Notes: generated from the sequence alone by a model not told the origin. A stretch of DNA of 64,000 nucleotides from Marsupella aquatica (GCA_973895155.1 OZ316892.1:22731168-22795167), one strand, 5' to 3'; numbered from the stretch's first letter, positions 5,657-53,900 are shown. Numbers and translations: made by a program.

Positions 5657-5861
5657 ATCATATAAGCTCGCATAAACTTGGGCATACTCAGATGAACCAC
5701 TTCTAAACACAAAGGCAGTTCATTGGAGAATGTCAAAGTTCATGGGAGCTGATACTTTTAGAACGTGATTTATTAAAGCTTTCAGAGCATAAATTTACAT
5801 ATTGGAATGACTCGTAAGAAAATCACCATCATATAGGTCCATCCTAGAAAATCGTTGAAAT

Positions 5862-8800
5862 TTATGCAAGACCGGACAATGAATTCTTTGTTGATGTTTT
5901 CGATTGTACAAGATAAGAAATTGTAATCGATTGTGATGCCTCCTTCTGCTCTGAGCTGACAGGTACCTCAAAAGCCAATGCCTTGTAAAGGCAAACCTCG
6001 TCCTGTTGACAATAATAAACCTTGCAGGAAATTCTAACACTGCTGGAGCTTGAGCTACCAGGGATTCTAGAGAATTGCAGCTTGGCTCGACCATCAGGAC
6101 CAATGTTTCCACTTGCTGGCTCAATAGTCACACCTGAGTCTTGTTCAACATCGGCTTCGTATTTACTCTGAGCCTCTGTGGTAAAATGAAATTCTGAAGG
6201 AAGTTTGAACTCAAGCTGGAGTTCGCCGCTTGTGGAAGATATTGGAGCAACTTGAACAATCTCTGTGTCTGATGACAATCGCCGCCTCAACCGTCTAGGT
6301 GCAGTCACAGGGGATGGGGGAGGCGGTGCGACTCCTTTCAGTTCCAATGTTTTGAGAGTTGGGCTGCCCTTTGCACTAATATCCAGTACTCTAATTACGT
6401 TGTTGTTAGTGTCTGCAACAAATAGCGTGCCATTGGGACCTTGAGCCAGTCCGGCAGGTTCTGAGAGCTGGGCAGACTGACCCTTCCCATCTTTGAAGCC
6501 TGCTTTTCCTGTTCCTGCAATGCTTGTAACCTTTTGACTTCCCTTCTCAATCGCTTTCACCTTGTGGTTGTACGAGTCGGCAATGTAGATGAGACCATCG
6601 GTCCCATTCAGAACACCCAGGGGATGCTGGAGCAACGCTTTTGATCCGACGCCATCCTTGTCTCCAAACTGAAACAGATTGTCAGCAAACATAGGATCAC
6701 CACCAGCAAGGAGCTTAGATCCTCCCGTCTTCAAGTCCATCAATCTGACAGAGCTGCTCTCGCTATCAGCAACGAAGATCTCTTTTGTATCTGTTCCCAA
6801 GGACAGGCCTGAAGGTTGTGCATATGATGTATTTGAACCACTCTTTCCATTAAGATTGCGCTCATAACCATCTCCACTGAATACCTTCGCGACACCATCT
6901 GACAGGTTGATCTGCCAGATCTGATGCTGCCCGGCCAGTGCAACGTAGAGGACTCCATAACTAGAGTCAAGGCACACATCCCATGGAGAATTCAGGACCT
7001 GTGACAAGCCTTTATTGCCACCCTTGTAGTCTGCGCCTTTTTCACCATTACCGGCAAGCGTTTTGACACTCTCATTGACGAAGTCAATCTCCCTAACAGC
7101 ATGATTCTCGGTGTCTGCAACATAGAGCACATTCTTGCTTGGATTGTAAGTCAAACCCTGTGGACGATTGAAAGCTGCATACTCGAAAGAGCCATCTCTG
7201 AAGCCTTCACCTCCACCACCACCCACTTGCAATATGAACTTCCCTTCTAGATCAGTCACCACAACGCGGTGATTGTTGCTATCGGAGATAAATAACCGCT
7301 GGTTGGCAAGATCAGTTGCAAGTTTCCCTGGAAACTTGAGGGGAGAGGCTGCTAGTCGAGAATCTTTGTCCTTTTCCAACGCTTCAGGAACTGGGCGATA
7401 ATCTAGCAACTGTTTCTCTCCATAATAATTCAATGCAGCTTGGACTAGATCATCCAAATCCTTCCTATGACCTTCACCTGCAAGCTGGGCAATCACCTTG
7501 CCTTTGGGGCTAAGGACCATTAAAGTGGGCCATGAACTCACTCCCAGTTGCCTCCACATCACCATGTCTCCATCATTTACCACCGGGTGAGTAACATCAT
7601 AACGAAGGACTGCGTTACGGATGGCACTTGAATCCTTCTCATTGTCAAATTTGGCAGAGTGTACTCCCACAACAGTAAATGCCTGGTCAGCGTACTTTTT
7701 TTCAAGGTAAGATAGATCGGGGAGAATGTGCATACAATTGATGCAGCAATACGTCCAAAAATCAAAAACCACAACTTTGCCTTTGAGATCCCTTTGCAAG
7801 CTCAGGGGAGGTGAATTCAGCCACTCCAATTGTGGCTTGAAATCTTCAACCGACTCCCCACCTCCCTTGGCCTCCATGTCGGCAATGTACTTAGTGAACT
7901 GCTTGATACGTTGAGAAGAGGTTGCATCTGAATCATTTACCATGGGGCTACTCACCCCAAAAACTGCATTAAGCAACGCTTTTGGGGATGCATAAGACAT
8001 TGCTTTCCAATTTGACGCAGCAACCCCTATGCAACTGAGCCCAATCAACAGGCTACCAAATCTGAAAACGTCACGCCTTGTTGTCATAGGCCCAAGAGGA
8101 AGGACCAGTTCCTTATCAAGGCTCAAATTCCCTCCTAAATCTGAAAGAAAGGAGCTCGCCCGATCCACAACAGAAGGAAACTCAATGTCGGCCATCGGCA
8201 GTTCTTGAGATTCAGGTGCTGTTGAGCTTGGGCCACTCCCTGATTCAGGAGGCTCCTGCAGTGTGAGCAGGTCTTCCACAGATATTTTCGAGATGTCCTT
8301 TCTAATCAGAGAAGGTCCTGCTGGCTGCAGTCTTTCCTCGTCAAGGGTAGTAGTCACAGCAATGCATCTCATTCCAGCTGCCCTAGCTGCTTGAACCCCA
8401 GCAAGTGCATCCTCTACAACCACACACTCTTCTGGGGGAAGGCCAAGAGCCTTGGCTGCAGCAAAAAAAATGTCAGGAGCTGGCTTTAGATTTTTGAACA
8501 AATCCGCTGACACAATTGCATCAAAGTTGTCTTGAGGGAGGCCTGCAGCAGCCAGATTGGCATCCACCTTGACCCTGTCCGCACTTGAAGCCACTGCCAT
8601 CTTAAGACCTGCCTCCTTGCATTGCAGAATGAGGTCCAGTGCCCCTGGGTAACCTAAGCCAGAATTCGGTAGGGCATACTTTGCAATGTATATTTCGAAG
8701 AAGCGTTTTTTGGCTGCGATCACATCAAATTGATCTACACCATATTTTGTTGCAACTCCTCCCAGAAAATTTGCTTCTCCTGTGCCCATAAAGGGAACGA

Positions 8801-9254
8801 AATCTTCCGCAACCACAGTGATCCCCATTTCAGCAAAGAGAGCAACTCCTGCATCCCTTGATGGCTCCTCGCTATTGCACAGCACTCCATCCATATCAAA
8901 CAGCACTCCTCTCACTTCAGGAGCTTTTTCTCGCTCCTCCTCTCCTGCTGTCTCGCTCTCAACCTCCCCCACCTCATTAGCCAGCGCTCGACCAATCTCT
9001 GCTCCCTTCTTCCTTGCTGCTGCTCGGGAATTGACCAATTCACCAACGGGCCCTGAATCTCTGGATGAACTCCTCTTCTTCAGCGAGCTCTGCAAAATCG
9101 ACAGAGCTGAAGGAAACGCGGAATTCAGTGGAAATGGGGCAGGACCCACAGATTGTTTCAGCTCCTCTGCATTTCTGCGCAGTTGTGAGGCCCTCGCCAA
9201 GCTGTTGACTCCCGGGCGTTGTGCACAAGGCAACAGTAGAAGCTTCGCCTCCAT
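5862..9254 (-). CDS. SOQ1: SUPPRESSOR OF QUENCHING 1 homolog (transit peptide, HAD phosphatase-like, TM, thioredoxin-like, NHL beta-propeller, C-terminal domain), single exon
   Basis: Uninterrupted ~1130-aa ORF from the ATG at 9254. It has HAD motif I FDMDGVLC, KPAPDIF and VVEDA, a hydrophobic TM segment, thioredoxin-like DFWTYCCINC, NHL repeats (FPGKL, ISDSNNHR, FNRPQG, LNSPWD, LQHPLG, LSEPAG) and C-terminal VYYC...VCLY. Confidence 0.95.
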   Translation of the reverse strand: MEAKLLLLPCAQRPGVNSLARASQLRRNAEELKQSVGPAPFPLNSAFPSALSILQSSLKKRSSSRDSGPVGELVNSRAAARKKGAEIGRALANEVGEVESETAGEEEREKAPEVRGVLFDMDGVLCNSEEPSRDAGVALFAEMGITVVAEDFVPFMGTGEANFLGGVATKYGVDQFDVIAAKKRFFEIYIAKYALPNSGLGYPGALDLILQCKEAGLKMAVASSADRVKVDANLAAAGLPQDNFDAIVSADLFKNLKPAPDIFFAAAKALGLPPEECVVVEDALAGVQAARAAGMRCIAVTTTLDEERLQPAGPSLIRKDISKISVEDLLTLQEPPESGSGPSSTAPESQELPMADIEFPSVVDRASSFLSDLGGNLSLDKELVLPLGPMTTRRDVFRFGSLLIGLSCIGVAASNWKAMSYASPKALLNAVFGVSSPMVNDSDATSSQRIKQFTKYIADMEAKGGGESVEDFKPQLEWLNSPPLSLQRDLKGKVVVFDFWTYCCINCMHILPDLSYLEKKYADQAFTVVGVHSAKFDNEKDSSAIRNAVLRYDVTHPVVNDGDMVMWRQLGVSSWPTLMVLSPKGKVIAQLAGEGHRKDLDDLVQAALNYYGEKQLLDYRPVPEALEKDKDSRLAASPLKFPGKLATDLANQRLFISDSNNHRVVVTDLEGKFILQVGGGGGEGFRDGSFEYAAFNRPQGLTYNPSKNVLYVADTENHAVREIDFVNESVKTLAGNGEKGADYKGGNKGLSQVLNSPWDVCLDSSYGVLYVALAGQHQIWQINLSDGVAKVFSGDGYERNLNGKSGSNTSYAQPSGLSLGTDTKEIFVADSESSSVRLMDLKTGGSKLLAGGDPMFADNLFQFGDKDGVGSKALLQHPLGVLNGTDGLIYIADSYNHKVKAIEKGSQKVTSIAGTGKAGFKDGKGQSAQLSEPAGLAQGPNGTLFVADTNNNVIRVLDISAKGSPTLKTLELKGVAPPPPSPVTAPRRLRRRLSSDTEIVQVAPISSTSGELQLEFKLPSEFHFTTEAQSKYEADVEQDSGVTIEPASGNIGPDGRAKLQFSRIPGSSSSSSVRISCKVYYCQQDEVCLYKALAFEVPVSSEQKEASQSITISYLVQSKTSTKNSLSGLA

Positions 9255-10018
9255 GGAGCCCAACTCCCAAAATTCTCACAAAAGCGTTCAGCAATTCCAC
9301 GAGTGCTTCAGACTCCAACCTACGAGAAATTCATAACATTTTCGCTCATGAATGGCGAGAAGGAAGGATTCTGTTTGCTGATTATGAGGATTTGAAGCTC
9401 TTCTTCAAAATCTCGCAGTCCCCTCGTCTTCAAGGGTGATGGTTATACTCCTCTGAGACTTGGATTAGAGTACAGTAGTTCTATAGGTCTATCCACTTCT
9501 CTTTCCATTTCACATATCGGGGCAACGTATCAGCATTCACACCCACACAATTTTTGGGATTAAAATCTGGCGATGGCGAAAGATCTATTGTGAGTACAGA
9601 CATTTACTGTAGTTACGAATGGGTAACCCATGGTCTGGAGGAGGTTAGACCATCTCCAAGGTTACTGGGTTTGGTTACTGGGTTTGGTTACTGTGCTACG
9701 TGGACGGTAACTAATGGCCCAAGGGGTTATGGGTTGTAATCCCTGAGAGCATTGAGCTCAAGTGGGGTTATAGCCATGGCCCTTGAGTGACCATGGATTA
9801 CCGAGTGTAAGCCATAAGTGTATTTTTGCTCTACTTTTTTATTTGAAATTGCACATGACATTGGATGACACTCTAGGCAGGCTAGCGACGAGGCCAAAAT
9901 CTCACAACCCCCGGCCAGACTGGCAGGGGGTTAGGACTCAGAGCTATCCATAGAAATACAAAGCAAAATGTATAGGAGGGATTTATGAATGGATAACCCA
10001 TGGAGGCAAGGGGATTTA

Positions 10019-10579: not shown

Positions 10580-12162
10580 GTATGGGGTGTAATTTGTGAG
10601 GGCAGTGAGCCCTAGGGGGTGACAGAGCTTAAACCCTCATTGTGTCGCCCAGAACTATGCTTGCAAGGAGAAAGACTCACAAGGAGGGTTAATTTTTTTT
10701 GGGCAAGGTCTGCCGGGAGCCCTGCATCCCACAGCAATTGGGTGCTTTGACAACACAGTATTAGGGGCTTTCCAAGAATAACTGGACCACAAATGACCAG
10801 TAGGTTTGAAGATTTTGCTTTAGGATGCCTTCACAAGAAGTGGGGGCCCATAGCTTAATTCTGTTCCCTTTGAGATTAAATCTGGACCTTATGATGAGTA
10901 GGACAGAGTATTGTAATAGGCCAAGAACTCAACTTGGTAAGGTGAATTTCTCTTATGGCTGACAAAAGGGTAGTATAATAGATGATGGTGAGGAGGCAAT
11001 TTGGGTATTTGACCTGTGGCTGTTGCGTCGTAGGGTTGGGCTTTCTTGGTTTGCTAGTATGGGATGGGGCCTTTGGGGAGGATACTTTGGCTCCCCCTCC
11101 CTTCAGGACTTTAGTGGTGCTTTTGGGTTTTTCCTTCCCTGGTTGGTTGTTGGACATTTGCTTTTGTTGCTGGCCGTCCGGTGGACACTGTGCCTGGTTG
11201 GTTTGCCTTTGGCTACTTGTTTTCCCCTCATCAATGGGGTTTTTGCGGAATCATGTTTTTGGGTGTTATGTTAGTATGTTCCATAATTAGTTTTCTATGA
11301 CAACTTCTCTACTCACACTATTTCCAGTGTCATGCTATTCCAGGAGTCACACTAACTTCATACTAACCCTAAAATACACTACCTTCGTACAAACGGTAAA
11401 TCACCTGCTTTTAATAACATTTCCAACCCACACTTCCCACACCCAGGTAATGTGACTACACTTACCACAAGATTCATTGTTTCACACAACATTTTCGGTA
11501 TCAGTAGTCCCACCACAATAATGTGGCCTGATTCCTATAATTAACATTACTTGTAACACAATGAGTCACTTTCAATTATTGTTAATACTAGTTAGTGTTA
11601 GTAAGGCTGATTCCAGTTGGTTTTGGTTATGTGTACACACTTAACCCTTTCGTTGCCACTGATTTCTGGCAGCAGCGACACTGTCTACTTTGGGTCCGCC
11701 TCCGATCGTTTGCCCTTTTTTGTTGGTTTTTCCAGGCCCTCTTTCGGTGTTTCTTTTGCCGGCCACGGTTGTGATCCCGCCTCGGCCGCCGCGCGACCAC
11801 CTTCCGGTACCCACGGGTTGCAGGTCGATGCCTTTATTTTTGCTCATAGCCTCGTAAAGGGTCGCGTGCCAGGTTTATCGCCACCTCGCGGCTGTGTGTT
11901 TATAGGGTGCCCTTCTCCCTCTGTGTATACACATCGGGGGCGACAGCCCTTTCCTTACCATTTTATTTTCCTTTCGCTTGCCGGTACTGCATAGGCCATC
12001 GTGCCCTCCACTCTTTTCCCACCCGCCATTTTCTTTATTTTCCCACTCGCGGTTTTCTCTCCTTTTCCCCCGTTGCCAGCACTTAAAATAGGGGAGAGGG
12101 AACGAGTACAAGCAAGAGCCGAGAGGGAGAGGGTACGAGGCCCTATGGCAAATTAAGAGGGC

Positions 12163-12273
12163 CAGCCTGGTGATTTTTGTGTGGCCTGTAGTACCGGGTT
12201 GGAAGCCCATAGCCCTTTCTCTCTCCTCAGGACTAGGTTCATCCCATGTACCGGTAGAATGTCGATAAACCAG
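12163..12273 (-). pseudogene. Remnant resembling the C-terminal motif IX region of a C5 cytosine DNA methyltransferase inside the retroelement polyprotein
   Basis: Minus strand reads LVYRHSTGTWDEPSPEERERAMGFQPGTTGHTKITRL, fitting the C5-MTase motif IX pattern (..E.eR.mGFp..yT). It lies just downstream of the protease region on the same strand. Motifs I-VIII are not visible. Confidence 0.55.
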
Positions 12274-12376
12274 GCAAGGGGAAACGGCCCTGAGTACAAG
12301 TCGTTTCCCATCAACACTGACCCATTTCTATTCAAGAGTCACAAGACAAGAGCAAAACCTAAGAGTCATCAGTATG

Positions 12377-14933
12377 TCAATCAACTCTATAGTATGCATG
12401 CTCATGCCAATTGTCAATTGTGAAACCCGGTGGGAACAAAGCCTCCTGGCCAATGAGCACATCATACGTAGTGGCATTTGTAACCAAGCATCTGACTGGG
12501 AAATGAAGCTCCTGATTTGTACCTCCATTAAAAGTGAGAGTGAATAAAATAAAACTCTCACCCAGCACGTCCTCCACAGTGCCACTAGTAGTCTGAATGT
12601 GCCACCTGGATTGCTGTAAATTACCAGTCAGAAGTCCCATCTTCTTGGCAAACTGAATGCCCAAGATCACTGGTTGAGCATCTATGTCTAGCATGACCAC
12701 CTGAGGAGTGTGACCCTCCAACTTGACCACTGAATTCCTGTTGTTAACAATGGCAATGGTGGTGGAAAGTGAAGTCCTGTCACTAGGCACCACTTTCGGC
12801 AAATGATGAGGTACCTTGTGAAGGGAGTCAGTGTCCACGGTCTTCCTACTCAGCAGCATAGCCAGGAAAGATGGAGCAACATGACCAACATCAAGTGTAG
12901 CTCTGGTCACACAATCAGCAACAATTGGTACCGGGACAGCCAAAACCAGTGGAAGCATGTAATGGAGAAGAAGGTCCAGTATGTACATGAGATTGGACCT
13001 CCAAAACTGGTGTCACAGGGATTGATAAAGAATGCAGTGAACCCTCTAGCGCTCTGATGATAGCTCTGGCATCCAACTGTAAATCGTGGTAACTAAAAAG
13101 TGAAATTGTAAGAATCTGTTGTGCCATATCGGAGGTGAAATGCTCAAGCAGCTTAGGAGAAACAACTCCCTGTGAAATGTTAGTAGCACCTGGTGGTGGA
13201 ATGGATGTAGCTGCAGCTCCCTCCCCCCTTGCTAACAAGGTGCGCTCTTCAACAAATGTGAGTGGCTGAAAAGATTGGGGCATTATAGCCCGAGCTCTCC
13301 TAGCTCTAGTCATAGGACCGGCAACAAGACCATCAACCTGTACAATACGGCGTGTGGGAGCAGTACGGGAGACAGCACTGGCCTACTGGTAAGCAAAATA
13401 GAATGGGCAGAATAAATCTGAAAATTCTGCTGTAAGGCCAGGCTGTGTAACAAAGGACAGCATGCGCTCACCCATATGAGTATCAAAGGGCAAGCCATAG
13501 AAAGAGCGGGGCAGACCCGGGGGGCAGAGGTGCTGAATTGTCAGTGGTGCTTGGACCAGGGATGGGTTACACATGACCGGCAGGTTGAGAAGGACCAATA
13601 GAGGCAGGTGACTTGCCTTTGATGTTGGCAAGTTGGACACGTAAAGATTCAACCTCATGAGTCAAAGACTGTAGTTGAGTAGCTTGTGCGTTGTGAGCCT
13701 CCTTCTGAGCTAGTTGCTTTTGTTGTTGCTTCCAGGGTGGCCTGTTGGCGCCGGGTGTTTGGCACTAGAAGGAGGAGCAACTGATGCAATAGGAGCCCTC
13801 CTAGCTGGTGGGGGAGTGGAAGCAAGAGCATAATGAGGGGCCTGTTGTCTTAGCTACTTCCTCTTTGGGAATTTGGCAAAATACACTGCCTCCAAGTGAC
13901 CCACTTTCCCACAAAAATCACAAGACAAGTCCTCAGCAACAATGTCACATTCATTAGCCTTGTGATTAGGGTTACCACAATAGTTGCAAGATGGCAACAT
14001 GAAAGCAACTTTATGTGTTGGCTTGGGCTTGGAACCATACTGTGGCACATGGAAAGGAGTGGCTAGTGTAGGGGCAGCAGCCTGATACCTGGATTGTGGC
14101 GGACGTGCAATGATGGCCTCATAATGTGCATGAGCCAACTCCAGTTTCTCAAGAGTGTCATATATATTGAGCAATGTGTAGCTGTCTCCAAACTTTGAGA
14201 ATACTTACTATAACACTTGCGAATGGAGAGCTGGTGTGCCCTCCAATGCATGAAGATAGCAATGAGTAGCCTCCAGGTTAGTGATGCTCTGGGTGTCCTT
14301 CTTCAGGTTGAGAAGCCGATGATACATCATCTTCAATGTTTCATTGCACTCCCGATCTCGCTGCCTCATAAAGGTGGCCAACTGCATGATTTTGTCAACA
14401 CTCTTGATTGGGAATTTCAATTCAAGAACCTAAAAAAACTCAGCCACTGGATCAGCAAAGGCAAGGAAATCAATGGTGGGAGAAATGCCCGATGTAGCCT
14501 GTGCCAATACAGTGGGAGTAACTGGCGTAGTGGTAGGAACTGGAGTAGGAGGGGTAGTGGCAAGAGCAACAGCATGGGCTGAAATGGCATTTTGTAATGC
14601 CAGTTGTGAGGCAACCACAATTGCACTAGCATAGGCATGATTAGGCAATTGTGTGACAACAAGCAGCCATTGAGAGTGCTGCTCATACACATCCAAAGCC
14701 TCATGGTGCACATACTTGGCTAGTTGCTTAAATGCAAAAGCATTTGTGAAATTGCTGCCGTACTTCAACTCCAATTCGTAAATGATAGTGTAGAAAGTAG
14801 ATTTGAACTCACGCAAAGAAACAGTGCCTGGCCGCCCGTTGAAGCGCTCAATGCGGCTAGATGAGTGACTGACACCCATGTTGTATGTCGGTGAAGCAAG
14901 GACAACCAGTGATGAAGATGGAGTAAAGGGCAA
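12377..14933 (-). pseudogene. Retrotransposon gag (two zinc knuckles) and aspartic protease, frameshifted
   Basis: Gag-like IERFNGRPGTVSLREFK and LATFMRQRDRE..LKMMY.RL. Zinc knuckles CNYCGNPNHKANEC and CDFCGKVGHLEAV. Protease-like VMLDIDAQPVILG (decayed D-T-G) followed by YDVLIG. Confidence 0.8.
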
Positions 14934-15633
14934 AGAAGCAATAGCAGGCTTTGGGGTAGTGGTGAAGCGACCACCAAATGTAGCAGAAGGATTGTGTGGT
15001 GTGGGTATTGTTGCTCTTTGCTAACGTTGTCAAAATTGCCAAAACTCCAATGAAATTGGCACCAACGGTTGTGGATGAGCTGCTACAATTCGGCTCCTCT
15101 ACTAACATGCTGCATGCTCACCCGGGGTGCCTAAATCAAAAATGCCCCCCTTCCTAGTGGTACAAGGTGACGATGGGAAAGAAACTGGCAAGAAAAAGGA
15201 ATGACAACCCCAAGGCTAAGAAATGAAACCCACAAAGGAAACAAACAGGGTGAGACAAAAATGTGTAGACCGGCCCTGCCAAAAATGCTCAAAAAAATGA
15301 AGCAAAAGAAACCAAGAGGAAACAGCGAAAAGGGGTCCCCAATGTGTATGCACAAGCAAGAGGTGTCTACACAAACCGGTCTTGCATCCCTATATAGCAA
15401 CTGGCCCTGGGAAAGAAATATAGAGAGGGAGGGCGAAAGTGATCGGACGCCCAATGTGTACACACGGGGCAGGCACGCCGAGAGCAAGCCCAATTGAAGC
15501 AGAAAAAAAGGTCAATCTTGTATATATGTGTACACACAGGGGTAGTAGTGGCACGATGCCCTATGCACCGACAACTTGCGATGACGGTAACAAAGAGGCG
15601 GAAAGGAGGCAAAGGAGAAAAAAAGGGGACCCC

Positions 15634-15980
15634 TTTTAATGATGACTCAAGCCCTCCTTATGAGCTCCCAAATGGAATTCCCTCCGCCTTCTTAATGATC
15701 CGTGGGGCCTCATGCCCTCTTGGCAAAAGTACTCCCCAGAGAAGGGAGTTGTATGTACTCCCCCCTCCTTTTAATGCAGCATAGGGCCTCGGGCCCTCCC
15801 CTTGTGCTCCTGCCTCGGCTCCCCCTCCCCACTACTTTAATGGTGTTGAATGGGCTTTGTGCCCTGCATGAGGACTCCCAAAGGGAGTCTACGTTAACTC
15901 CCCCCATTAATGCACTGTGGGCCTCGTGCCCTGGCAAGAGGACTCCCAAGAAGGGAGTTGAATGTACTCCCCATTCATCC
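15634..15980 (+). repeat. Array of five degenerate 56-79 bp units each starting TTAATG
   Basis: TTAATG at 15636, 15692, 15771, 15837 and 15907. Most are followed by GGGCC/TC..GCCCT, and three contain an ACTCCC-n-GGGAGT stem. A homologous unit lies on the minus strand at about 12080-12160. Confidence 0.7.
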
Positions 15981-16009
15981 AGCATCAGGAGTTCCAGCTC
16001 TACTCCATG

Positions 16010-19000
16010 TACGGTACTGCTACATGGCATCTAGACCAGGTGCACTTACCTCTATTCAACACTCACCGCTCCAGTCCAAGTGTTGGGGGGGAGGAGGTTC
16101 CTTTGAATGTGGCTGACATTATTTTTGAGTTTCATGGTGTGGACCATTCCAGATCAGCAGGTACAATAGGCCTTGGAGAGGTCTCATCACCTTATCAACA
16201 ACATACTAGCAGCTTGGACAGTGAAGAGGCCAACACTTCTGGTTATTCAAGCACGAGTACATCAGGTCCTATTCCTAGTGTACGTTGCCAACTACACATT
16301 CATCATGGGCAACCATTTGAGTAAAAGACAGATTGAAGGACCAGCTGCTGAATTTGCTCCTCAAGCATGAGAACGTGTTTGCTTTCTCTACGAAGGACTT
16401 GGGTAAGTGCAAGACTATGCAGTTCTCCATTGAGTTGATTGATGAAACACCTATCTTTAGGCGGAGACATCATTTGAGTAAGCATGAGTGGCAGTTGGTG
16501 GATGAGAGATGCCAATAGCTCTATGCAGCTGGTCTTATTCAGCCAACTACATCAGATTTTGCAGTAGCTACAGTGATGCCAACAAAGAAGGATTCCAGTG
16601 AATTGTGGACAGAGAAGCGCATGTGTGGGGACTATAGGCCACTGAACCTGGTCACACCTCAGGATAGGTACCCCATGCCACGGCCAGAGGAGCTATTTGA
16701 CAGCATTGGAGACTCAGACATCTTCACTCTTGTGGCTTTAACCAAATTTTGCTGCTTGCAAAGGACAGCAAGAAAACAACTTTACATGGTAGTAACCAAC
16801 TATGGGAGTGGTTGGTGATGTCATTTGGCTTGAAGAATGCGCCCATATTCTTTCAAAGAGTCATGGAGTCCCAAGTTCTTCAAGGTGTTGAGTTTCTAGA
16901 ATGCTACATTGATGATGTGTTGGTCCACAACAAAGGATTTGACCAGCCTCTACTTGACCTTGAGGAACTATTCATGAGGCTTAAGAAGGTGAACCTAAAG
17001 ATACACCCCAAGAAGCCTGAATTTGCTGTCAGATCAGTAGTATATCTTGGGCATCGGAATCTTCCAAATGGAACCATGGCTCACTGAGCCAAGGTGGTAT
17101 CCATCTTGGAAATGCCCACTCCTACTGATGTTCAAACTCTTAGGAGCTTTATTGGGTTGTGCAATCACTACCGGATCTACATCAAAGATTTCAGTACCAT
17201 TGCACATCCATTGTACTCTTTGTTGAAAAAGAATGTGACTTGGACATGGAGTACAAATGTTGAGGCAACATTTGCCACTTTGAAGGAGAAGCTCTCAAAA
17301 TACCCAGTGCTGAGAAGACCTGATTTCATCAAGGTCTTTGTGCTACACACGGATTGGAGTGCCCTTGGGATTGGTGCCATTATGGGCCAACATGATGAGG
17401 AAGATAAGGAGTACGTCATTGCCTATGCATCCAGGAGCAATAATCAAGCAGATAGTCATTATTCTTCTTATGAGGGTGAATGTATTGCTGTTGTGTGGGC
17501 TGTCATACATTACAGGCCCTACCTCTATGGGACCAAGTTTACTCTCTACACCGACCACCAGCCCTTGAAGTGGTTGATGACCAATGACAAGCTTACTGGC
17601 CAGCAAACTTGCTTGTTGGGCGCTCATACTCTAGGAGTATGACTTTGAGGTAATTCATAGGCCTGGTGTGACACATCAGAATGCTAACACTATGTCCCAT
17701 AGCCCTTTGATTACCTCTGATGTGTACTCAGATGCACGACAGGATTTTGACCAAGTTTCTATTCTGCCTACATTTCATGCATCTACCTATCTTGCTTTGC
17801 TGCCATGCTACGTTGTTGACCAACCTATGGTGGACATATGGGAGGACAACGACACCCTGATATTTTTGTAGCATGGGAGTACCCCGTACATGTTACTGCA
17901 GCCCAAAGAGATTGAATTCAGCAAAGGTCCAAGTGTTACTTGTGGAAGGGAGATCATCTCATGCGCCGTTTGCCAGACAGGGAAGTGGTGGTTTCACCCA
18001 TTCATGAGAGGGTTGGCCTTATCCATAAGGTACATTATGAACTTGGTCATTTTGGCGTTAAGATGACTTATAGCCTCTTGGTCCCCCATTATCATTGGAG
18101 AGGTATGGCCAGGTTTGAGATGTTATTGCCCGATGTGAGCAGTGTGATAGGATGAGGACTTCTTTCACATCTCGGTAACCCACACTTCATCCACTCCCTA
18201 TTCAGGGTATGTTTTATTGTTGGTCATGTGATTTGGCTGGAGAATTGCCCCTCACATCTCGGGGTAACCTCTACATCATGATCATGATAGAACATTTCTT
18301 TAAGTGGATAGAACTTGTGGCATTGCCGGATAAGACCTCTCGTAGTACCAGCCAGACATTCCTTCAACAAGTTCTTAGCCGCTTTGGAGCTTGTGCAGAA
18401 TGTCTCACTGACCAGGGATCAAAGTTCAGAGGAGAGTTCCAGGAGCTGCTTGATCAGGCCCTCATTGATCATCGCCAGACGTCACGAGATCATCCACAAG
18501 CAGATGGCTTGGTAGAGCGCATGGTTCAAACATGCAAGAAGGGTCTCCGAAAGATTTTCCTCACCAAAAAGGAGGATTGGGACTTGGCCTTACCCTACAT
18601 TGCCATGGGGTATAGGATGTCTAGACATGCATCACTGTCTAACTTTTCTCCCTACTTTTTGTTGTTTGGTCGTCACCCAATTCCACCTTCTACTATTGCT
18701 GCTCACATGCTTCAGGTGGTGGACTTGGATTCAGTCGTGACTTGGTCTGATGTGATCTCTGAGAGAGCTGCCCTATTCAGGAGGGTTATGTCCATGGCCA
18801 TGGAGAATTTGGCCATTGCACAACACAGAGACACACTGCGTTATGCACACACACGAGAGGGCACTTTTCAGCCCAAGGTCAGGAAATTTGAAGTGGGAAA
18901 TTTTGTGTACTTGCAGCGGCAAGCTAACAACACCCTGGACACCTCTACCAGTCGTACTATTCTTAGGGTTAAGGCTATTCAACCTTCTGGAGTGCTAGAG

Positions 19001-19273
19001 TTACAAGGAGCAGATGGGCCCACAATTGCTAACAATACCATAAATTGCGCCCCTTGTCATCTGCCTAACCTAGATCCCACCATTGTGACTTCTACTTGGA
19101 TTCCACCTGTGGACTACCTGTGCAAAGTGTGTTTGTGAATTGACGATGTTGACCAGATGCTGCTGTGTGACAATTGCAATGGAGGGTACCATCTTTCCTG
19201 CCTTCGGCCTGAACTTACCCGGGTGCCAGAAGGGTTATGGTTTTGCCCTTCGTGTGCTCCACGTGCTACCTGA
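16010..19273 (+). pseudogene. Ty3/gypsy pol: reverse transcriptase, RNase H, integrase and C-terminal PHD finger, with stops and frameshifts
   Basis: RT: RMCGDYRPLN, DRYPMP, MSFGLKNAP, YIDDVLV. RNase H: LHTDWS, YEGECIAVVWAV, LYTDHQPLKWL. Integrase: GHFG, LTDQG, HPQADGLVER. PHD after one in-frame TGA: CKVC*-IDDVDQMLLCDNCNGGYHLSCL..VPEGLWFCPSC. Confidence 0.92.
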
Positions 19274-19312
19274 ATTTTCTTCAGCCCTCATTTTGGCTGT
19301 GGTCTGGGGGGG

Positions 19313-19992
19313 ATACAGAGGTTTACACCTCCACTACGTACATACCACCTCATTTGCTTTTTCTTGGCACTTGTAAATGTGATGGGACTTTTTCTATGCA
19401 TGTTGGTTGCTAGTAGCTTGCACATGTGCATTGCCGGTGCCTTGTATGTTTTCGATACACTATGCCTACGATACTATATGTCATGACAGCTGTCATGCCA
19501 AGGGACAATGCCTCTTATGCACATCGATATGTCCCTCGCATGCCCGTTAGGTATGTAGTTAGGGCTAGTGTACTACTTAAGTTAGCGACATGTTCTTGTA
19601 GCAAGTCTGGGCTGTTCTTGAAGCAAACACACTTGTTAGTGTGATGCTTGGACTTGACTTACTTAGGGCATGTCTTTCTTTGCCGTTTTTCAGTTCTTCT
19701 TGAATTGCTGTTGACAGAGCTCAGATAGTGCTCGTTGGTCCCGTACACTGGATTCACACAGTGATTTGTTAAATGCTCCCGACCGATCTTGGCATCTCGC
19801 CGGTTTTCGATTCGATATACAAAGGTTTACACCTCCACTACGTACATACCACCTCATTTGCTTTTTCTTGGCACTTGTAAATGTGATGAAACTTTTTCTA
19901 TGCATGTTGGTTGCTAGCAGCTGGCACATGTGCATTGCCGGTGCCTTGTATGTTTTTGATACACTATGCCTACGATACTATATGTCACGACA
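19313..19992 (+). repeat. 3' LTR-like region with an internal 176-bp direct repeat
   Basis: 19313-19488 is repeated at 19817-19992 with few mismatches. The segment 19491-19992 has TGTCATG...CACGACA inverted ends. It is preceded by the polypurine tract GGGGGGGA. Confidence 0.75.
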
Positions 19993-20531: not shown

Positions 20532-20829
20532 TTTCCATGTCGGTGTGGCCGCCCAGAGAAAAAAAACCCACCTTCAAATTGATGAGGCAGCCGAGCTCCA
20601 CTGATATAGTGATATGGGCGACTGATCCAATTTCCATCTCGGTGTGGCCGCCCAGAGAAAAAAAACCCACCTTCAAATTGATGAGGCAGCCGAGCTCCAC
20701 TGATATAGTGATATGGGCGACTGATCCAATTTCCATCTCGGTGTGGCCGCCCAGAGAAAAAAAACCCACCTTCAAATTGATGAGGCAGCCGAGCTCCACT
20801 GATATAGTGATATGGGCGACTGATCCAAA
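20532..20829. repeat. Near-perfect 99-bp tandem triplication
   Basis: CGGTGTGGCCGCCCAGAG... starts at 20541, 20640 and 20739. The ORF track shows the corresponding 33-aa repeats. Confidence 0.95.
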
Positions 20830-43139: not shown

Positions 43140-44385
43140 AAATCCAGCCTGGAACTCATCCCTCGTCCTTTCCGGAGGGTCCTTTCCTTTCCCGAGGATG
43201 TGCTTTCTGTCCTCTTTATTTATGGGTATCTGTGCACTTCTTTTAACAAAAAAGTCGAGCAGGCAATAGTGAGCTTGCAGTGATCGTGTGAAGGACTTTC
43301 TTGTAGAATTTGAGTTGCCATCTTCAAATGTTTGTGCTCTTAATTTATGGATATCTGTGCCCTTCTTTGGACACAAGAGTCAAGCAGGAAATATTGAGCT
43401 TGCAGTGATTGTGTGAAGGTCTTTCTTGTAGAATTTGAGTTGTCATCTTCAAATTTTAGTGCTTTAAATTTTTGGGTATCTGTGCCCTTCTTTCAACACA
43501 AAGGTCAAGCTGGAAATTGGGAGCTTGCAGTGATTGTGTGAAGGTCTTTCTCATAGAATTTGAGTTGCCATCTTCAAATGGTTTGTGCTCTTGAAATAGA
43601 GGGATTTGCTTGGTGGGACCCCAAATGAAAATGTTTTACTTGATAAGACCCCTGAGTGATTCACACCATTGATTTACCTTGAATAGACGGACCTAAACTT
43701 TCAAGGGTCCAATTAAGTAGAACATTTTCATTTGGGGTCCCACCAAGCAAATCTCTCTCTTGAAATACAGGTATCTGTGCCCTACTTTCAACACAAAAGT
43801 CATGGAAATAGTGAGCTTGCAGAGACTGTGTGACGGTCTTTCTCATAGAATTTGAGTTGCCATCTTCAATTTGATTTGTGCTCCTTATTTATAGGTATCT
43901 GTGCCTTCTTTTAGCAAAAAAATCAAGCTAAAAGTCAAGCTTGCAGTGATTGTGTGAAGGTCTTCCTCATAGAATTTGAGTTGTCATCTTGAAATTGTTT
44001 TGTGCTCTTAATCCACGGGTATCTGTGCCCTTCTTTCAGAAAAAAGTCAAGCTGGAAAAATAGTGAGCAAGTTTGCAGTGATTGTGAACGTCTTTTTCAT
44101 AGAAGTTGAGTTACCATCTTGAAATTGATGCAAACAGACCACTAGTATAACTGTGTCCATTGCAAGTGCATTTTGAAAACAAATCTGAAGTGGATCCCAA
44201 AAGTCAACCTGGCATTCCCTCTTCATGTCAGAAGGGTCGTTTCCTTTCTGAGGATGTACTTGTTCTGTACTATTAATTTATGGGTATTCGTGCCCTTCTT
44301 TCAACTAAAAAGTCAAGCTGGAAATAGTGAGCTTCCAGTGGTGGTGAAGATTTTTTCAATAGAATTTGAGGTGCCATCTTGCTGA
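43140..44385. repeat. Satellite-like tandem array, unit about 120 bp
   Basis: gggtatctgtgcccttcttt...gagcttgcagtgattgtgtgaagg.ctt...tagaatttgagttg.catcttc recurs about seven times. Confidence 0.85.
43599..43757. mobile_element. Mutator-like MITE inserted in the satellite
   Basis: Long TIRs GAGGGATTTGCTTGGTGGGACCCCAAATGAAAATGTT / AACATTTTCATTTGGGGTCCCACCAAGCAAATCTCTC, with a 10-bp TSD TCTTGAAATA (43589-43598 and 43758-43767). Confidence 0.85.
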
Positions 44386-45916
44386 GGTGCATTGAAGACT
44401 AGTACAAAATTCAGTAATGTATTATAAAACCATTCAGGTTTTCCATATTTGTTTTGCCTTCATACAACAACGATTGCTATCTTCCAAGTGTTGAATATTT
44501 GTTGTCCATCCACAACTAACTCTATAAGACCAGTGACGCTCTTGTTTTTCTAGGGTTGGGGTGCATGTGTGAAAGCGCATCCAGTTTCATAGCAAAGGAA
44601 ATTCAAAATCTACCTAGCAGGCCAAGACATTATGGATGAAGTAAGCTGCCCTAGGGACAAGGGCTACCGGACAATAAGGACCAAAAACTGCCCTTATATA
44701 TGGACACTGGTGGTTTAATTGAACCTTGCAAGGTCTCTTGACTGTAGGGGGTGACGTCCCCTTTTTGCTCATCTCTTAAATTGCAAGCAGGTTGAGAGAG
44801 AATTTATTTGGTATCCTTATTTGATGCTTAATTTGTCCTTTTTTCCTGACCTCTTATAGAGTGAAGTATTCATGTGAAGAGGTCAAATGCCACAAAACGG
44901 TGCTGCCAATGAGAGGCTTGACCCTAAAATTCCCCCATCATGTTGGTATGCTCATCCTTTGTTTTGCAGTGATATTTAATTGACTGATGGATATGTTCTT
45001 TGCCTAGAACCTCAAAATTAAATCCTACAAACTCTACAAATTGCAAAGCAACGCTTTACATACTCTGCCACTTTTTGGTTCCAGTTACATTTGGATATGA
45101 CCACGATCAAATTTGCTTTGGATTGGTTGCACACACAAATCTACCCTTCTCCCAATCGATTGAAACCCTTCGCCTTCCATGGCCAAGAGAGTCCATAGGT
45201 AGCCTCAGAATATATTGGGCCACACACACTCAGGCAACCAAGAAGAGGAAAAACATAGGACTTCCCTCTCTTTACATGAACCAATAGATTTGTGTGTGTA
45301 TTTTTCACAAGCTATTGTGCCAATAATTATTATGTGCTGTCTGCATTCACAAACTAGCGCCACATATTTCACTCATGTTAGGGACATCTCCTTTCTACCC
45401 AGAAAAGCCTCTGGGACCCCGTCAAGGCCACAGATGTAGTAGGGGTTCTCCTGTTTTTGTTGGTCAGTCGCTGTGGGAGATTTTTGTCTGTGACCCTAAT
45501 CAAAACCTAACTTCTGGGAAACCTCTACCCATTTTGCTTTTGGTTTGAGATGGATCACAACACGTGCCCATGGATTAACTCGACATCATCAAATTTTCAA
45601 ATTTAGTCATTTTTCTGAAGGGATCCGGTGATTCTTGAAGGGTGCCAATGCATGTTCGGGGACCAAAGTTTGGTGCAGATGCTGGTGTACTGACTGCCTA
45701 AGTTGTTGATGGTAGTACTTTTTGGGAACCACAGAATTTGGTTTGTGGCCCCTACACATAGCATTCCTGTCACAAAACAATTGGTTGGTCCAGGAGCCAC
45801 CCCAATAATATTCATAGGCCCATGAAGCACGTGTCTCACGTTCCCGCTCACGTTTGGGACTCATTTGGGTCAAAACAACAATAAAATAAACAAAACGGGA
45901 GGAATGACATTGTATC

Positions 45917-46726
45917 CCCGGTTTGAGCTGTCGGACAACTTGTCGTGTTGTCGGACACGACAACTTGTCATTTGTCGCCCGAAAATGACCCTATTTGTCG
46001 CATATTCCTTTTTATGCCCCGGCCCGGCCCAATCCCTTCCCGGCCCGGCCCATTCCCTCCCCGACTCTTCCCGGCCCCTTCCATTCCCGGCTCGGTCCGG
46101 CACCCGGGTCGGCCCGGTCTCTTCCCGGCCCGGTCCCGCATCCCGCCCGGCCTCACAAACACTAGGTGAGGGCGGGCCGAGTGCGGGGCCGGGCGGGATG
46201 CGGGGCCGGGAAGGGGCCGGGCCGGGAATGGGCAGGGGCCGGGCCGGGAATGGGCAGGGGCAGGGCCGGGAAGGGAAGGGGCCGGGAAGGGGAGGGGTAG
46301 GGCCGGGCCGGGAAGGGGGAGGGGGAGGGGGAGGGCTGGGCCGGGAAGGGGGAGGGGAAGGGAAGAGGCCGGGAAGGGGAGGGGTAGGGCCGGGCCGGGA
46401 AGGGGGAGGGGAAGGGAAGAGGCCGGGAAGGGGAGGGGTAGGGCCGGGCCGGGAAGGGGGAGGGGGAGGGGGAGGGGGAGGGCCGGGCCGGGAAGGGGGA
46501 GGGGAAGGGAAGGGAAGAGGCCGGGAAGGGGAGGGGTAGGGCCGGGCCGGGAAGGGGGAGGGGAAGGGGGAGGGAAGGGGAAGGGGAAGGGGCAGGGCCG
46601 GGAAGGGAAGTAGCCGGGCCGGGAATTACCGGCCGGGAGCCGGACCGGGGACCGGGGTGGACCGGGTGACAACTTGTCGGTTGTCGAGTCCAAAGGCCTC
46701 TATTTGTCGGACAAGTCCAAACCGGG
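45917..46726. mobile_element. Non-autonomous hAT-like element with an extremely G-rich interior
   Basis: Imperfect TIRs CCCGGTTTG..TGTCGGACAA / TTGTCGGACAAG..CAAACCGGG, an 8-bp TSD ATTGTATC (45909-45916 and 46727-46734), and subterminal gacaacttgtcg motifs. Confidence 0.85.
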
Positions 46727-50997: not shown

Positions 50998-53900
50998 TGT
51001 TGGGTATTTACTCTTACGTCTAGGTTAGGTATGACGTGGTTGGTACAACAACGTGGGTTGGTACAACTACGTGGTTAGGTACAACTATGTGGTTAGGTAC
51101 AACTACGTGATTAGGTACAACTATGTGGTTAGGTACAACTAAGTTGCACACTATATCATAAGAGGCATGTGTGCTTGGAGAGGTAGAACCAAGGCTCATT
51201 GTTATGGAGCCACTTGAGAGATAGGGAGAGCTTACACTGTGGAGACTCGGTATAGCCGACGGGCTTAGAGTTCAGTAAAGCTCTCTTGTGTGTTCTCGTG
51301 GACGTAGCCTCAAGGAGGTGAACCACGTATCTCTTGTGTCGACTATTGTGCGTTGGATGGTTCATGGGCTTGCCGTTGCGATCGTCGTCTATGCTCAACA
51401 ATTGGTATCAGAGCATGCTTGGGAGGTGGCGTGTGTTCGTGATGGGATTTCATGACGGTTTTTCCAGCGTTGAGTATTGGTGGATTTTCCAGAGTTCCAT
51501 CGCATGGAACTTGGAGTTTATGGGCTCAACGGATAGATCAGGGCAAGAGCTTTCTAACGGTGTGAAGAAATCGTTGAACGGAGCTCGTGGTGCAGAGAGA
51601 TCTAAGTTTTCGTCGTTCTGGATTTTGTGAAGAAAGTTGGCAATCGACTCGGAGGGAGAAGCGTCAAGTGTTTTGACTCAACGGAGAGATTGAGGCAAGA
51701 CGATTGTTTTTGAGTCCGGGATTGGCTCTTTGATGCAAAGAGGAAGGCTAAGCAAAATCAATTACCTTGTTGGACTTGGTGACGGCACCAAGTGCAATTG
51801 ATCAACATTCGTTGTTGACAAGACGTGGAACTTGAAGCACGAGGATCACCGCGGAGGTTTCAGGGGCAGAGAGAGGAGCAGGAGGAAGAGCACGTGACAC
51901 CGATACCATCACCGGTGCGGCGTGTGGTGGAGGAAGCAGTACTACTACCGGAGCTCACGGTAAAGAAGAAGATGGGGACTTTCAAGCTTGGGGGACCCAA
52001 GTATGAAGTGACAAAGTATGATGGGCGCTCTGACTACTTGCTATGGGAGAAGCAGGTGAAGGGAGTGCTTTATGCGTCAGGGATGGGCCAACTGCTGAGC
52101 CCTCGTGAAGACGATGTTGATGAGAAACAATGGGACCGCATGCAGGAGCAGGGAGTGTGGTGTGTTACACTCTATCTCATGCCTCCCATCATCAAGCAGT
52201 TGGGTGCACATAAGGATTGCATGTCCTTGTTTGCAGAATTGCAGAGCAAGTATCACCGCAAGGAGTTGTCGAACCGGCTCTACACTTCCTACAAACTGAT
52301 GAGTTTCAGGATGAAGGAATCTGGTACGAAGTTGCAAGACCATGTGGATGCTTTCAACGACATGGTTGTTGACTTGGAAAACCTTGGGGAGACTTTGAAT
52401 GATGAGACGAAGGCTCTGCAGCTTCTTAGTTCATTGCCTCCATCTTACCAGTCCCTATCACGAGTGTTGTTGCATCGTGATAGGGATACCATTTCATACA
52501 ATGATGTGGTAAGTTCTCTGCTTAGTGATGATCTTCAGCAGAAGATGCACATCACGTCACAGCCTTCATCATCTGGTGCTGCCCTCAATGTTAACCGTGG
52601 GAGGAGTATGCAGCGACCAACTGGGGACCGTAGAACCCAGTTTAGATCTAAATCCAGATCTAAGTCCAAGGGTAAATCCCCTCAGAGGAGGCAGGTGACA
52701 TGTTGGAAGTGCAACCAAGTTGGATACTTCAAGCGAGACTGTAAGGGAAAGGCAGCGGAAACTTCATCGGCAAATGTGGCTAGGGCTGATGGAGAAGCTG
52801 ATTTACTCAATGATGAGTATGTTTTATGAAGCCGGGGGTATGCCCTGTGCACGTCATCTAGGAGAGCAGATGATGTGTGGATTCTTGATTGTGCTTGCTC
52901 TTTTCATATTTGTTACATTCGTGAGTTTTTCAGTTCTTACTCTATTTCAAACGGTTCAGTTCTGATGGGAAATGATCACTCCTGTCAAATTGAGGGAATT
53001 GGGTCTGTGAAGATTCAAATGTTTGATGGCGCTGTGCGCACAGTGTCCGGAGTCAGGTATGTACCTGGCATGCGTAAGAATCTGATTTCACTCGGTGTGT
53101 TGGATTCAAATGGTCATCAATGAAGCGTTATTGATGGTGAACTTCAAGTCAGGTCGGGAGAGACAGTGATTTTGAAGGGGAGTAGAAAAAATAATTTGTA
53201 TGTGTTACAGGGCAATACTGTATGTGGAGAGGCCAATGTAACCAAGTCTCACGAGGAGATGACTCAACTGTGGCATTCACGGCTAGGCCACATGAGTGAG
53301 AAGGGTTTGGCTATCTTACGGAAGAATGGACTCATTTCTGATTTGCAATCTTGTAAATTAGAGTTTTGTGAGCATTGCATTCTTGGAAAGCAGCATCGTC
53401 GTGCTTTTGATATTGGAACTCATCGTTCCAAAGCGGTTCTTGAGTACATACATAGTGACGTGTGGGGTCCATCCCCGACTCCCTCACACTCTGGAAAGTT
53501 ATACTATGTATCATTTATTGATGATTACTCAAGATTTGTGTGGATTTATTTCATGACGCATAAGTCTGATGTCTTGTCCATTTTTAAGAAGTGGAAGGCC
53601 CAGGTGGAGAATCAGACTGGAAACACGATCAAGTGTTTGGATACAAGGGTGAAGAGTCTGAGGTCAGACAACGGCGGGGAGTACACTTCAATGGAATTTG
53701 AAGAGTACTGTTCAGAACAGGGGATAACTCGCCATCTCACCACAGTTTATACTCCGCAGCAGAATGGTGTCGCTGAGAGGCTCAATCGGACACTGTTGGA
53801 GCGGTCATGGAGTATGTTGAGCCAATCAGGTTTACCACAAGAATTTTGGGCAGAAGCTGTCAATACCGCAGCTTATTTGGTAAATCTTTCTCCTTCTAGT

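Follow-up and report, generated by a model that had tools for sequence, protein, structure and literature searches.

How does a bryophyte retrotransposon come to show what looks like a piece of a cytosine methyltransferase on one strand and a PHD finger on the other? The question is raised by a Gypsy-type element in a stretch of 64,000 nucleotides from Marsupella aquatica (GCA_973895155.1 OZ316892.1:22731168-22795167), which we call the window and from whose first letter all positions are counted. A preliminary description, made from the sequence alone, had taken the element for a deleted copy of a family whose polyprotein reads gag, protease (PR), DNA methyltransferase (DNMT), reverse transcriptase (RT), RNase H (RH), integrase (INT), and PHD finger. 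We found that, as far as its identity alone is concerned, it is very likely a dead and rearranged copy of a high-copy bryophyte Ty3/Gypsy family that bears a DNMT3-type enzyme, a PHD finger, and split repeats.

A methyltransferase remnant and the family it comes from

The proposal of a methyltransferase had been built on one peptide, LVYRHSTGTWDEPSPEERERAMGFQPGTTGHTK(ITRL), encoded on the minus strand at 12273-12163, downstream of the protease and on the same strand. Its position was confirmed, and so was its assignment to motif IX of a C5 DNA methyltransferase. The peptide matched the DNMT region of the related protein P0024 with 82% identity over 39 amino acids, and with an E value of 6.6e-16 in the window the match is not due to chance. 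It was 77% identical to P0104 of Calypogeia and 85% identical to P0063, and relatives in this range of identity (Calypogeia fissa, Sphagnum, and peat-metagenome loci) carry motifs I to X between protease and RT. Through a metagenome locus, L013, it could also be aligned with the motif IX region of DNMT3A. A Pfam search with the 37-amino-acid peptide alone returned no family.

Using the window protease as a query for longer proteins, we obtained 23 relatives, of which 4, including a protein of Calypogeia fissa, exceeded the PF00145 cut-off. In a second protein of Calypogeia, CAM6101866.1 (P0104), a single chain runs from gag through protease and a complete DNMT to the start of RT, and a Sphagnum magellanicum gene model unites protease, a partial DNMT with the same peptide, integrase, and PHD finger in one protein. 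We also confirmed 520 metagenome loci and examined the best 80, ranked by a PR-DNMT query, some of which represent the same insertion in different assemblies. The DNMT lay behind the protease on the same strand in all 80, and PR-DNMT-RT-RH-INT-PHD were co-linear on one strand in 26; in L013, DNMT, RT, and RH form a single stop-free frame of 847 residues. The postulated polyprotein therefore exists, as the P0104 open reading frame, the L013 frame, and the 26 co-linear loci attest, and intact members do have PF00145 matches and methyltransferase motifs between protease and RT. Gypsy-type RT and RH, a DDE integrase, and the order PR-RT-RH-INT are all present, with Ty3 RT as the best solved match of the RT (E 1e-62). 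One contig (L021, 1252-11645) holds two family copies head to tail.

A wider search with a DNMT profile that includes some flanking columns gave 645 clusters at 50% identity (E up to 1e-30). RT-RH-DNMT-INT-PHD is the layout of most long members of this set, among them proteins named Monoraphidium neglectum, Haematococcus lacustris, and Scenedesmus sp., which are chlorophytes. In a FastTree phylogeny of 79 of the 182 DNMT domains, the RH-DNMT-INT layout was separated, with a support of 0.97 and one exception, from the PR-DNMT-RT layout that holds the bryophytes. The RT tree agreed, on a thin sample in which a single outgroup stood beside four rows with the bryophyte-type layout. Because the RT tree is small and the DNMT tree covers only these 79 domains, we claim no donor and no order of events. 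Among viral contigs, 114 pattern matches included no relative of the family, and the scores from a search of the ESM Atlas with P0014 all stayed below 0.9 and provide at most a lead. Three proteins (P0060, P0268, and P0269) combine a related DNMT3-like domain with a classical RNase H, and two of them with RT and PF12237; they are probably DIRS-like elements, and two of the three served only as an outgroup.

The domain is of the DNMT3 type and under purifying selection

In the usual numbering, the family's DNMT contains motifs I, IV (with its Cys), VI (EN), VIII, IX, and X in unpermuted order. The preliminary description had spoken of a C5 methyltransferase in general; by sequence and predicted fold, the domain is more precisely of the DNMT3 type. 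The best solved matches of the L013 domain were DNMT3A and DNMT3B (E 1e-8), the next non-DNMT3 entry following at 0.003 and M.HhaI at 0.007. An AlphaFold2 model built from 17 sequences reached a predicted local distance difference test score (pLDDT) of 92, and the Foldseek matches listed for it were all DNMT3A, B, or C, with template modeling (TM) scores of about 0.7.

Across 17 divergent proteins, the Gly of motif I, the catalytic Cys, the Glu of motif VI, and residues of motifs VIII and IX are invariant or nearly so, and 63 of 73 aligned stretches keep the Cys, set in a W-E-C motif. The median dN/dS in a set of 18 loci was 0.39 for DNMT (153 pairs), 0.32 for RT, 0.35 for RH, and 0.72 for the linker, all four medians being inflated by decay after insertion. 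The DNMT domain is thus under purifying selection. For the window copy itself no such ratio is given, since dS against the loci had reached saturation for the peptide and, for the most part, for RT. We lean slightly towards the idea that DNMT3, once packaged, would methylate the cDNA newly made from the element. The CpG ratio of the window element, 0.27 against 0.46 in the neighboring gene, cannot separate methylation by the element from methylation by the host.

The window copy is rearranged

Six-frame translation and Pfam searches showed that the minus strand (14879 to 12163) encodes gag with its CCHC knuckles, the protease, and the 37-amino-acid peptide, and that the plus strand (16336 to 19255) encodes RT, RNase H, integrase, and the PHD finger. 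The copy is accordingly not co-linear, its gag-PR-DNMT half opposing its RT-RH-INT-PHD half, and stops or frameshifts interrupt its coding parts. Its features are as follows.

11615-12161, plus strand: left part of the 5′ leader in the original orientation of the element; left edge approximate (11615-11654), repeat A1 missing
12162-15980, minus strand: inverted internal block (leader, gag, PR, DNMT remnant), with a strand switch relative to co-linear relatives; right break at about 15975-15992
12163-12279, minus strand: DNMT3-like remnant, the end of the target-recognition region plus motif IX; 77-85% identity to P0104, P0024, and P0063
12280-12367, minus strand: unrelated filler of about 88 nt in place of 369 codons; no second copy within the window
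12368-12871, minus strand: aspartic protease region (core 12709-12401) with a decayed active-site triad; 65-73% identity to P0001, P0003, and P0014
12966-14879, minus strand: gag and spacer, 49% identical to P0001 residues 1-633 and broken by several in-frame stops; two CCHC knuckles at about 14000-13860
15992-16331, plus strand: DNMT-RT linker, frameshifted; matches P0104 1264-1371 and P0024 345-437
16336-17603, plus strand: RT and RNase H, interrupted by in-frame stops and, near 16735, by a frameshift; RVT_1 E 6e-16, RT_RNaseH E 5e-31
17877-19100, plus strand: DDE integrase (zinc-binding part, core 18194-18685, C-terminal part), frameshift near 18105; rve E 1.2e-10
19121-19255, plus strand: C4HC3 PHD finger at the integrase C terminus (PF00628), in-frame stop 19136-19138
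19306-19312, plus strand: G-tract directly before B1, likely the plus-strand primer (polypurine tract)
19313-19488, plus strand: repeat B1, with TGACA at its end; identity to B2 96% over 176 nt
19484-19495: palindrome TGACA-gc-TGTCA at the B1/A2 joint, predicted to serve as an internal attachment site; relatives share this junction, and their outer ends read TGTCA and (C/T)GACA
19491-19816, plus strand: repeat A2, 326 nt, starting with TGTCA; position and first bases as in the A2 of relatives
19817-19992, plus strand: repeat B2, the right end of the element (CGACA); depth drops towards flank level beyond it

The CCHC knuckles of gag matched zf-CCHC with E 4e-5, the protease match was weak (PF13975, E 0.033), and RT/RH was 77-79% identical to P0024. 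Identities of the window copy to Calypogeia and to the peat-metagenome loci were similar. Of the span 11615-19992 given in the preliminary description, the right edge stands as the end of B2; the left edge is only approximate and marks the start of the leader, with no A1 before it. It is based on contig depth, which at about 11630-11654 begins to exceed that of the flank; a trial with three short motifs, taken from behind A in other copies, failed to mark it. When A2 was sought on both strands of the window, scores of 23-28 against 21-40 for shuffled sequence showed A1 to be absent, and because of this loss no target duplication can be named for the copy.

To see how this arrangement arose, we compared the window with contigs of four public runs (X1-X4, from two studies), leaving out runs with a small share (X5-X8). 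Summed contig depth, taken as an indication of abundance and not as a copy number, was tens of thousands over the coding parts against about 60-160 in the left flank (X1 and X2). Identical contigs at flank-level depth bridged the left inversion joint in X2, X3, and X4, and an identical contig bridged the right joint in X3. Other copies depart from the window at 12363 and at 12275-12279 into the missing linker or target-recognition sequence (read by eye). At 12160 they pass into motif X, in each of the four runs, at 12157 into leader-type sequence, and at 19816 into different sequence, as expected for A1 followed by the leader. The leader repeat unit at 12126-12160 is the inverted partner of that at 15767-15801. 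Relative to P0104, the window lacks residues 832-1200 (369 codons; linker, motifs I-VIII, and most of the target-recognition region) and, at the strand switch, residues 1240-1263 (motif X).

Since contigs bridge the inversion joints, other copies continue into the missing parts, and A1 is absent, we conclude that one plus-strand element underwent an inversion of about 3.8 kb (about 12162-15980), a deletion, and a loss at its 5′ end. These losses, which came after insertion, took away A1, the 369 codons spanning linker and DNMT, and, at the inversion joint, motif X. An antisense arrangement as a trait of the family was rejected, for none of the 80 loci shows the opposed layout. The earlier verdict of a deleted, nonfunctional copy thus holds, but the copy is more broken than had been stated, with an inversion and with neither motif X nor a 5′ repeat, and it is a poor representative of its family.

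A PHD finger at the integrase end

The C4HC3 PHD finger reported at the end of the integrase is real, with a PF00628 E value of 1e-11 for 19139-19270 and all eight ligands present, although an in-frame stop (19136-19138) interrupts it between the first Cys pair and the remaining ligands. A PHD finger follows the integrase in 82 of the 85 DNMT-bearing proteins long enough to show one. The nearest solved PHD fingers were those of KMT2D/C, WSTF, KDM5 (PHD1), KAT6, BAZ2, UHRF1, and AIRE. Several of these read the unmethylated H3K4 tail, and PHD fingers of this kind lack an aromatic cage. By this likeness, the finger would tether the integrase to nucleosomes with an unmodified H3 tail; that it guides insertion in this way seems to us marginally the better guess. 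Pfam scans of the relatives returned no chromodomain family, and with a PHD finger in place of a chromodomain at the integrase C terminus, membership in the chromoviruses was rejected. REM1 is reportedly another PHD-bearing element.

Split repeats and a predicted route of insertion

The ends of the family are not the ordinary long terminal repeats (LTRs) that might be assumed for a Gypsy element; they are split direct repeats. In relatives, the repeats are arranged as A1..B1-gc-A2-B2, beginning with TGTCA and ending with GACA (TG..CA ends), and the B1/A2 joint forms the palindrome GACA-gc-TGTC in relatives and window alike. Two complete identical LTRs are absent, and because the repeats are split, the family is Gypsy by its enzymes but not a canonical LTR element by its ends. 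A target duplication of 4 bp was found in 10 of the 14 nonduplicate relatives with both ends visible (8 exact, 2 with one mismatch), the other 4 having no clean right end. The Symbiodinium element SymbioDIRS-Dnmt3 belongs to the tyrosine-recombinase class, whereas the bryophyte family has an rve DDE integrase and 4-bp target duplications, on which grounds we rejected membership in DIRS.

A G-rich run precedes B1 in all 24 locus rows and in the window. No primer site of the tRNA type (starting with TGG) was seen behind A1 in the aligned rows, which were read by eye and not searched with a tRNA library. A conserved TATA box lies inside A, and a stretch about 33 nt downstream of it pairs with 14 nt at the A1 border in 23 of 29 copies (p≤0.05 against shuffled primers); the motif was absent in 1 of the 30 copies in this analysis. 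These landmarks imply that the repeat copied by reverse transcription would be B-gc-A, with the attachment site inside it. Transcription would start about 33 nt after the TATA box inside A1, and the first bases of the RNA would pair with the sequence just behind A1, so that the minus strand would be self-primed; the G-tract before B1 would prime the plus strand. Reverse transcription would then place a B-gc-A unit at both cDNA ends, joining of these ends would produce the A2/B2 joint, and insertion would take place at the internal palindrome TGACA-gc-TGTCA, opened by the integrase. Judged from these sequence landmarks, the cycle as a whole is fairly probable, and end joining with internal cleavage would be the simplest route to the integrated form. 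We know of no LTR element for which cutting by a DDE integrase at a palindrome inside the repeat of end-joined cDNA has been established.

The A2/B2 joint is mostly precise, with small irregularities in a few rows. B1 and B2 within a copy resembled each other more than the mean of other copies in 8 of 8 elements, and A1/A2 identity exceeded that to the best other copy in 6 of 8. Some copies (L052, L064/L068, and L069) have A1 and a single B with the 4-bp duplication intact, as expected from B1-B2 recombination removing A2. In the family copy of L028 and L031 (about 5711-6016), A1 is inverted, a second case of inversion in the 5′ region; inverted repeats are present in the leader.

Relation to known elements

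Retrotransposon DNMTs have been described from dinoflagellates and a charophyte (de Mendoza 2018, PMC5890265). The closest known system is, by description in the parts of that paper available to us, KnitGypsy-Dnmt3 of Klebsormidium nitens, a Gypsy element with Dnmt3 in Pol and DIRS-like repeats (A1 .. B A2 B). Both have a Dnmt3-type domain inside the Gypsy Pol open reading frame (here DNMT-RT-RH and gag-PR-DNMT-RT in one frame), a DIRS-like split repeat layout, and purifying selection on the DNMT, the selection in the present family being weaker (median dN/dS 0.39) than the published <0.2. In contrast to the Klebsormidium element, the present family occurs in land plants (Calypogeia fissa and Sphagnum magellanicum) and has relatives in chlorophytes (Monoraphidium, Haematococcus, and Scenedesmus) with the DNMT between RH and INT. 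The passages on KnitGypsy-Dnmt3 mention no PHD finger, target duplication, internal palindrome, or self-priming, and "PHD" does not occur in the main text. Since no protein named Klebsormidium was among the returns of our homologue searches, the likeness is by description and not by tree.

SymbioDIRS-Dnmt3 likewise has Dnmt3 in Pol and split repeats, and its domain methylates CG de novo, according to the passages concerned (PMC5890265). Chromoviruses, Tcn1, and REM1 resemble the present family in carrying a chromatin-reader domain on a Gypsy element (PMC6317226, PMC6673714), and the pairing at the A1 border resembles the self-priming predicted for Tcn1 elements (Neumann 2019, PMC6317226); the present family differs in having a PHD finger instead of a chromodomain at the integrase end, and those groups, as far as the same passages show, have ordinary LTRs and no DNMT. 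PHD fingers are described as widespread in retrotransposons (de Mendoza 2019, PMC6673714). The EpiLTRs of Cymbomonas and Euglena also join a DNMT and a chromatin reader in LTR elements, but their DNMT is sister to DNMT4 and accompanied by DAM and a chromodomain, and the passages available have their authors calling it distinct from streptophyte Gypsy-DNMT3 (bioRxiv 10.64898/2026.05.21.726589).

In the full texts searched, to which most subscription journals and Repbase do not belong, DNMT3-bearing elements of this kind were described only from algae. "Streptophytes" are named as earlier-reported hosts in passages of two papers (bioRxiv 10.64898/2026.05.21.726589; PMC12344493), whose supplementary trees may hold bryophyte sequences. 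According to an opinion paper, in the part available, land plants such as tracheophytes have no methylase-encoding transposons (Morozov 2019, PMC6338049). The portions of PMC11244446 and PMC6673714 at hand give no bryophyte case, and a full-text search for DNMT3, retrotransposon, and Sphagnum together returned no paper.

Discussion

Taken as a whole, the reading of the window as a dead copy of a gag-PR-DNMT3-RT-RH-INT-PHD family, with a DNMT3 likely to methylate cDNA and a PHD finger likely to tether the integrase, is somewhat probable. Several observations weigh against it or against parts of it. Among 37 full single-frame DNMT copies in the peat loci only that of L013 is stop-free, which makes the population of these loci an old one; the bryophyte-type lineage has W-E-C in motif IV rather than the usual P-C; and C-to-T decay at CG and CHG fits silencing by the host equally well. 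None of the contigs listed bridges the deletion joint at 12280-12367. For the route of insertion, own-copy B1/B2 identity exceeded that to the best other copy in only 3 of 8 elements, and the self-priming pair is unconfirmed in the window's subfamily, A1 being missing and A2 having no clear TATA box. A broader proposal, of a green-lineage Gypsy superfamily reaching from chlorophytes to mosses and liverworts with an active DNMT3, an H3-reading PHD finger, tRNA-free self-priming, and integration of end-joined cDNA through an internal palindrome, is tentative and may well go too far; only within it would the pairing of PHD and DNMT3 be a mobile analogue of the DNMT3-ADD pairing.

The most serious alternative concerns the enzyme. 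In this lineage Glu stands where the PC motif has its Pro, and W-E-C might make the retained DNMT3 domain a DNA- or RNA-binding or RNA-modifying module and no DNA methyltransferase, and the DNMT of the SymbioLINE retrotransposon is reported, in the part of the paper available, to have given no DNA methylation in yeast (de Mendoza 2018, PMC5890265). We regard this as unlikely, because the catalytic Cys, the motif VI Glu, and the motif VIII Arg are kept, x-E-C and x-P-C are about equally common across the superfamily (WEC 104 and WPC 93 of the wider matched domains), and SymbioDIRS-Dnmt3 is described there as methylating CG. It is a good deal less probable still that ordinary LTR elements gave rise to the split repeats, through recombination at a later stage or through insertion in tandem, and that integration uses normal linear ends. 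A2 and B2 together do resemble one complete TG..CA LTR, and some copies (L052, L064, and L069) have a single B; but the arrangement A..B-gc-A-B, with the 4-bp duplication around the whole, recurs in independent insertions, A followed by B was found at no 5′ end among those listed, the G-tract precedes B1 and not A2 while the primer-like site follows A1, and the same layout is reported for Klebsormidium in the corresponding passage (PMC5890265).

For the window copy itself, two partial elements lying back to back would account for halves on opposite strands without an inversion, and the missing 5′ repeat means that no target duplication unites them. This is very improbable, as the halves are complementary with only 24 codons absent between them (P0104 1239 and 1264), the leader units that flank the block on either side join in register, and other copies continue into the leader at 12157 and into motif X at 12160. 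That the opposed layout is an assembly error can hardly be maintained. The family is very abundant in the host runs, one of which may be the source of the window, as might favor misjoining in a repeat-rich region, but identical contigs at flank depth span the left joint in three runs, which come from two studies, and the right joint in one run. We therefore retain inversion, deletion, and 5′ loss in a single element.

Other features of the window

5862-9275, minus strand: uninterrupted frame of 1,137 amino acids with HAD, thioredoxin-like, and NHL domains and no introns
20532-20828: three 99-nt tandem copies, 99% identical, 540 nt past the right end of the element
43208-44390: array of 125-nt tandem repeats
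46014-46669: GC-rich low-complexity array with inverted arms
51038-56637, plus strand: Copia-type element whose 300-nt terminal repeats are 98% alike, with frames for gag, integrase, and RT/RH (by eye)

The frame at 5862-9275 is presumably SOQ1-like. The angiosperm SOQ1 gene is intron-rich, and the frame could be a retrocopy or the result of intron loss.

Implications

A DNMT- and PHD-bearing, split-repeat Gypsy family in mosses and liverworts extends the retrotransposon DNMTs known, from the literature as far as available, in dinoflagellates and a charophyte. Since standard LTR finders require two matching LTRs, as the relevant passage describes (PMC6317226), the family would escape them. Its split repeats combined with a DDE integrase point to an unusual route of insertion, and as an abundant bryophyte family with naturally intact domains, it makes the role of a captured DNMT testable in land plants with known methylation pathways.

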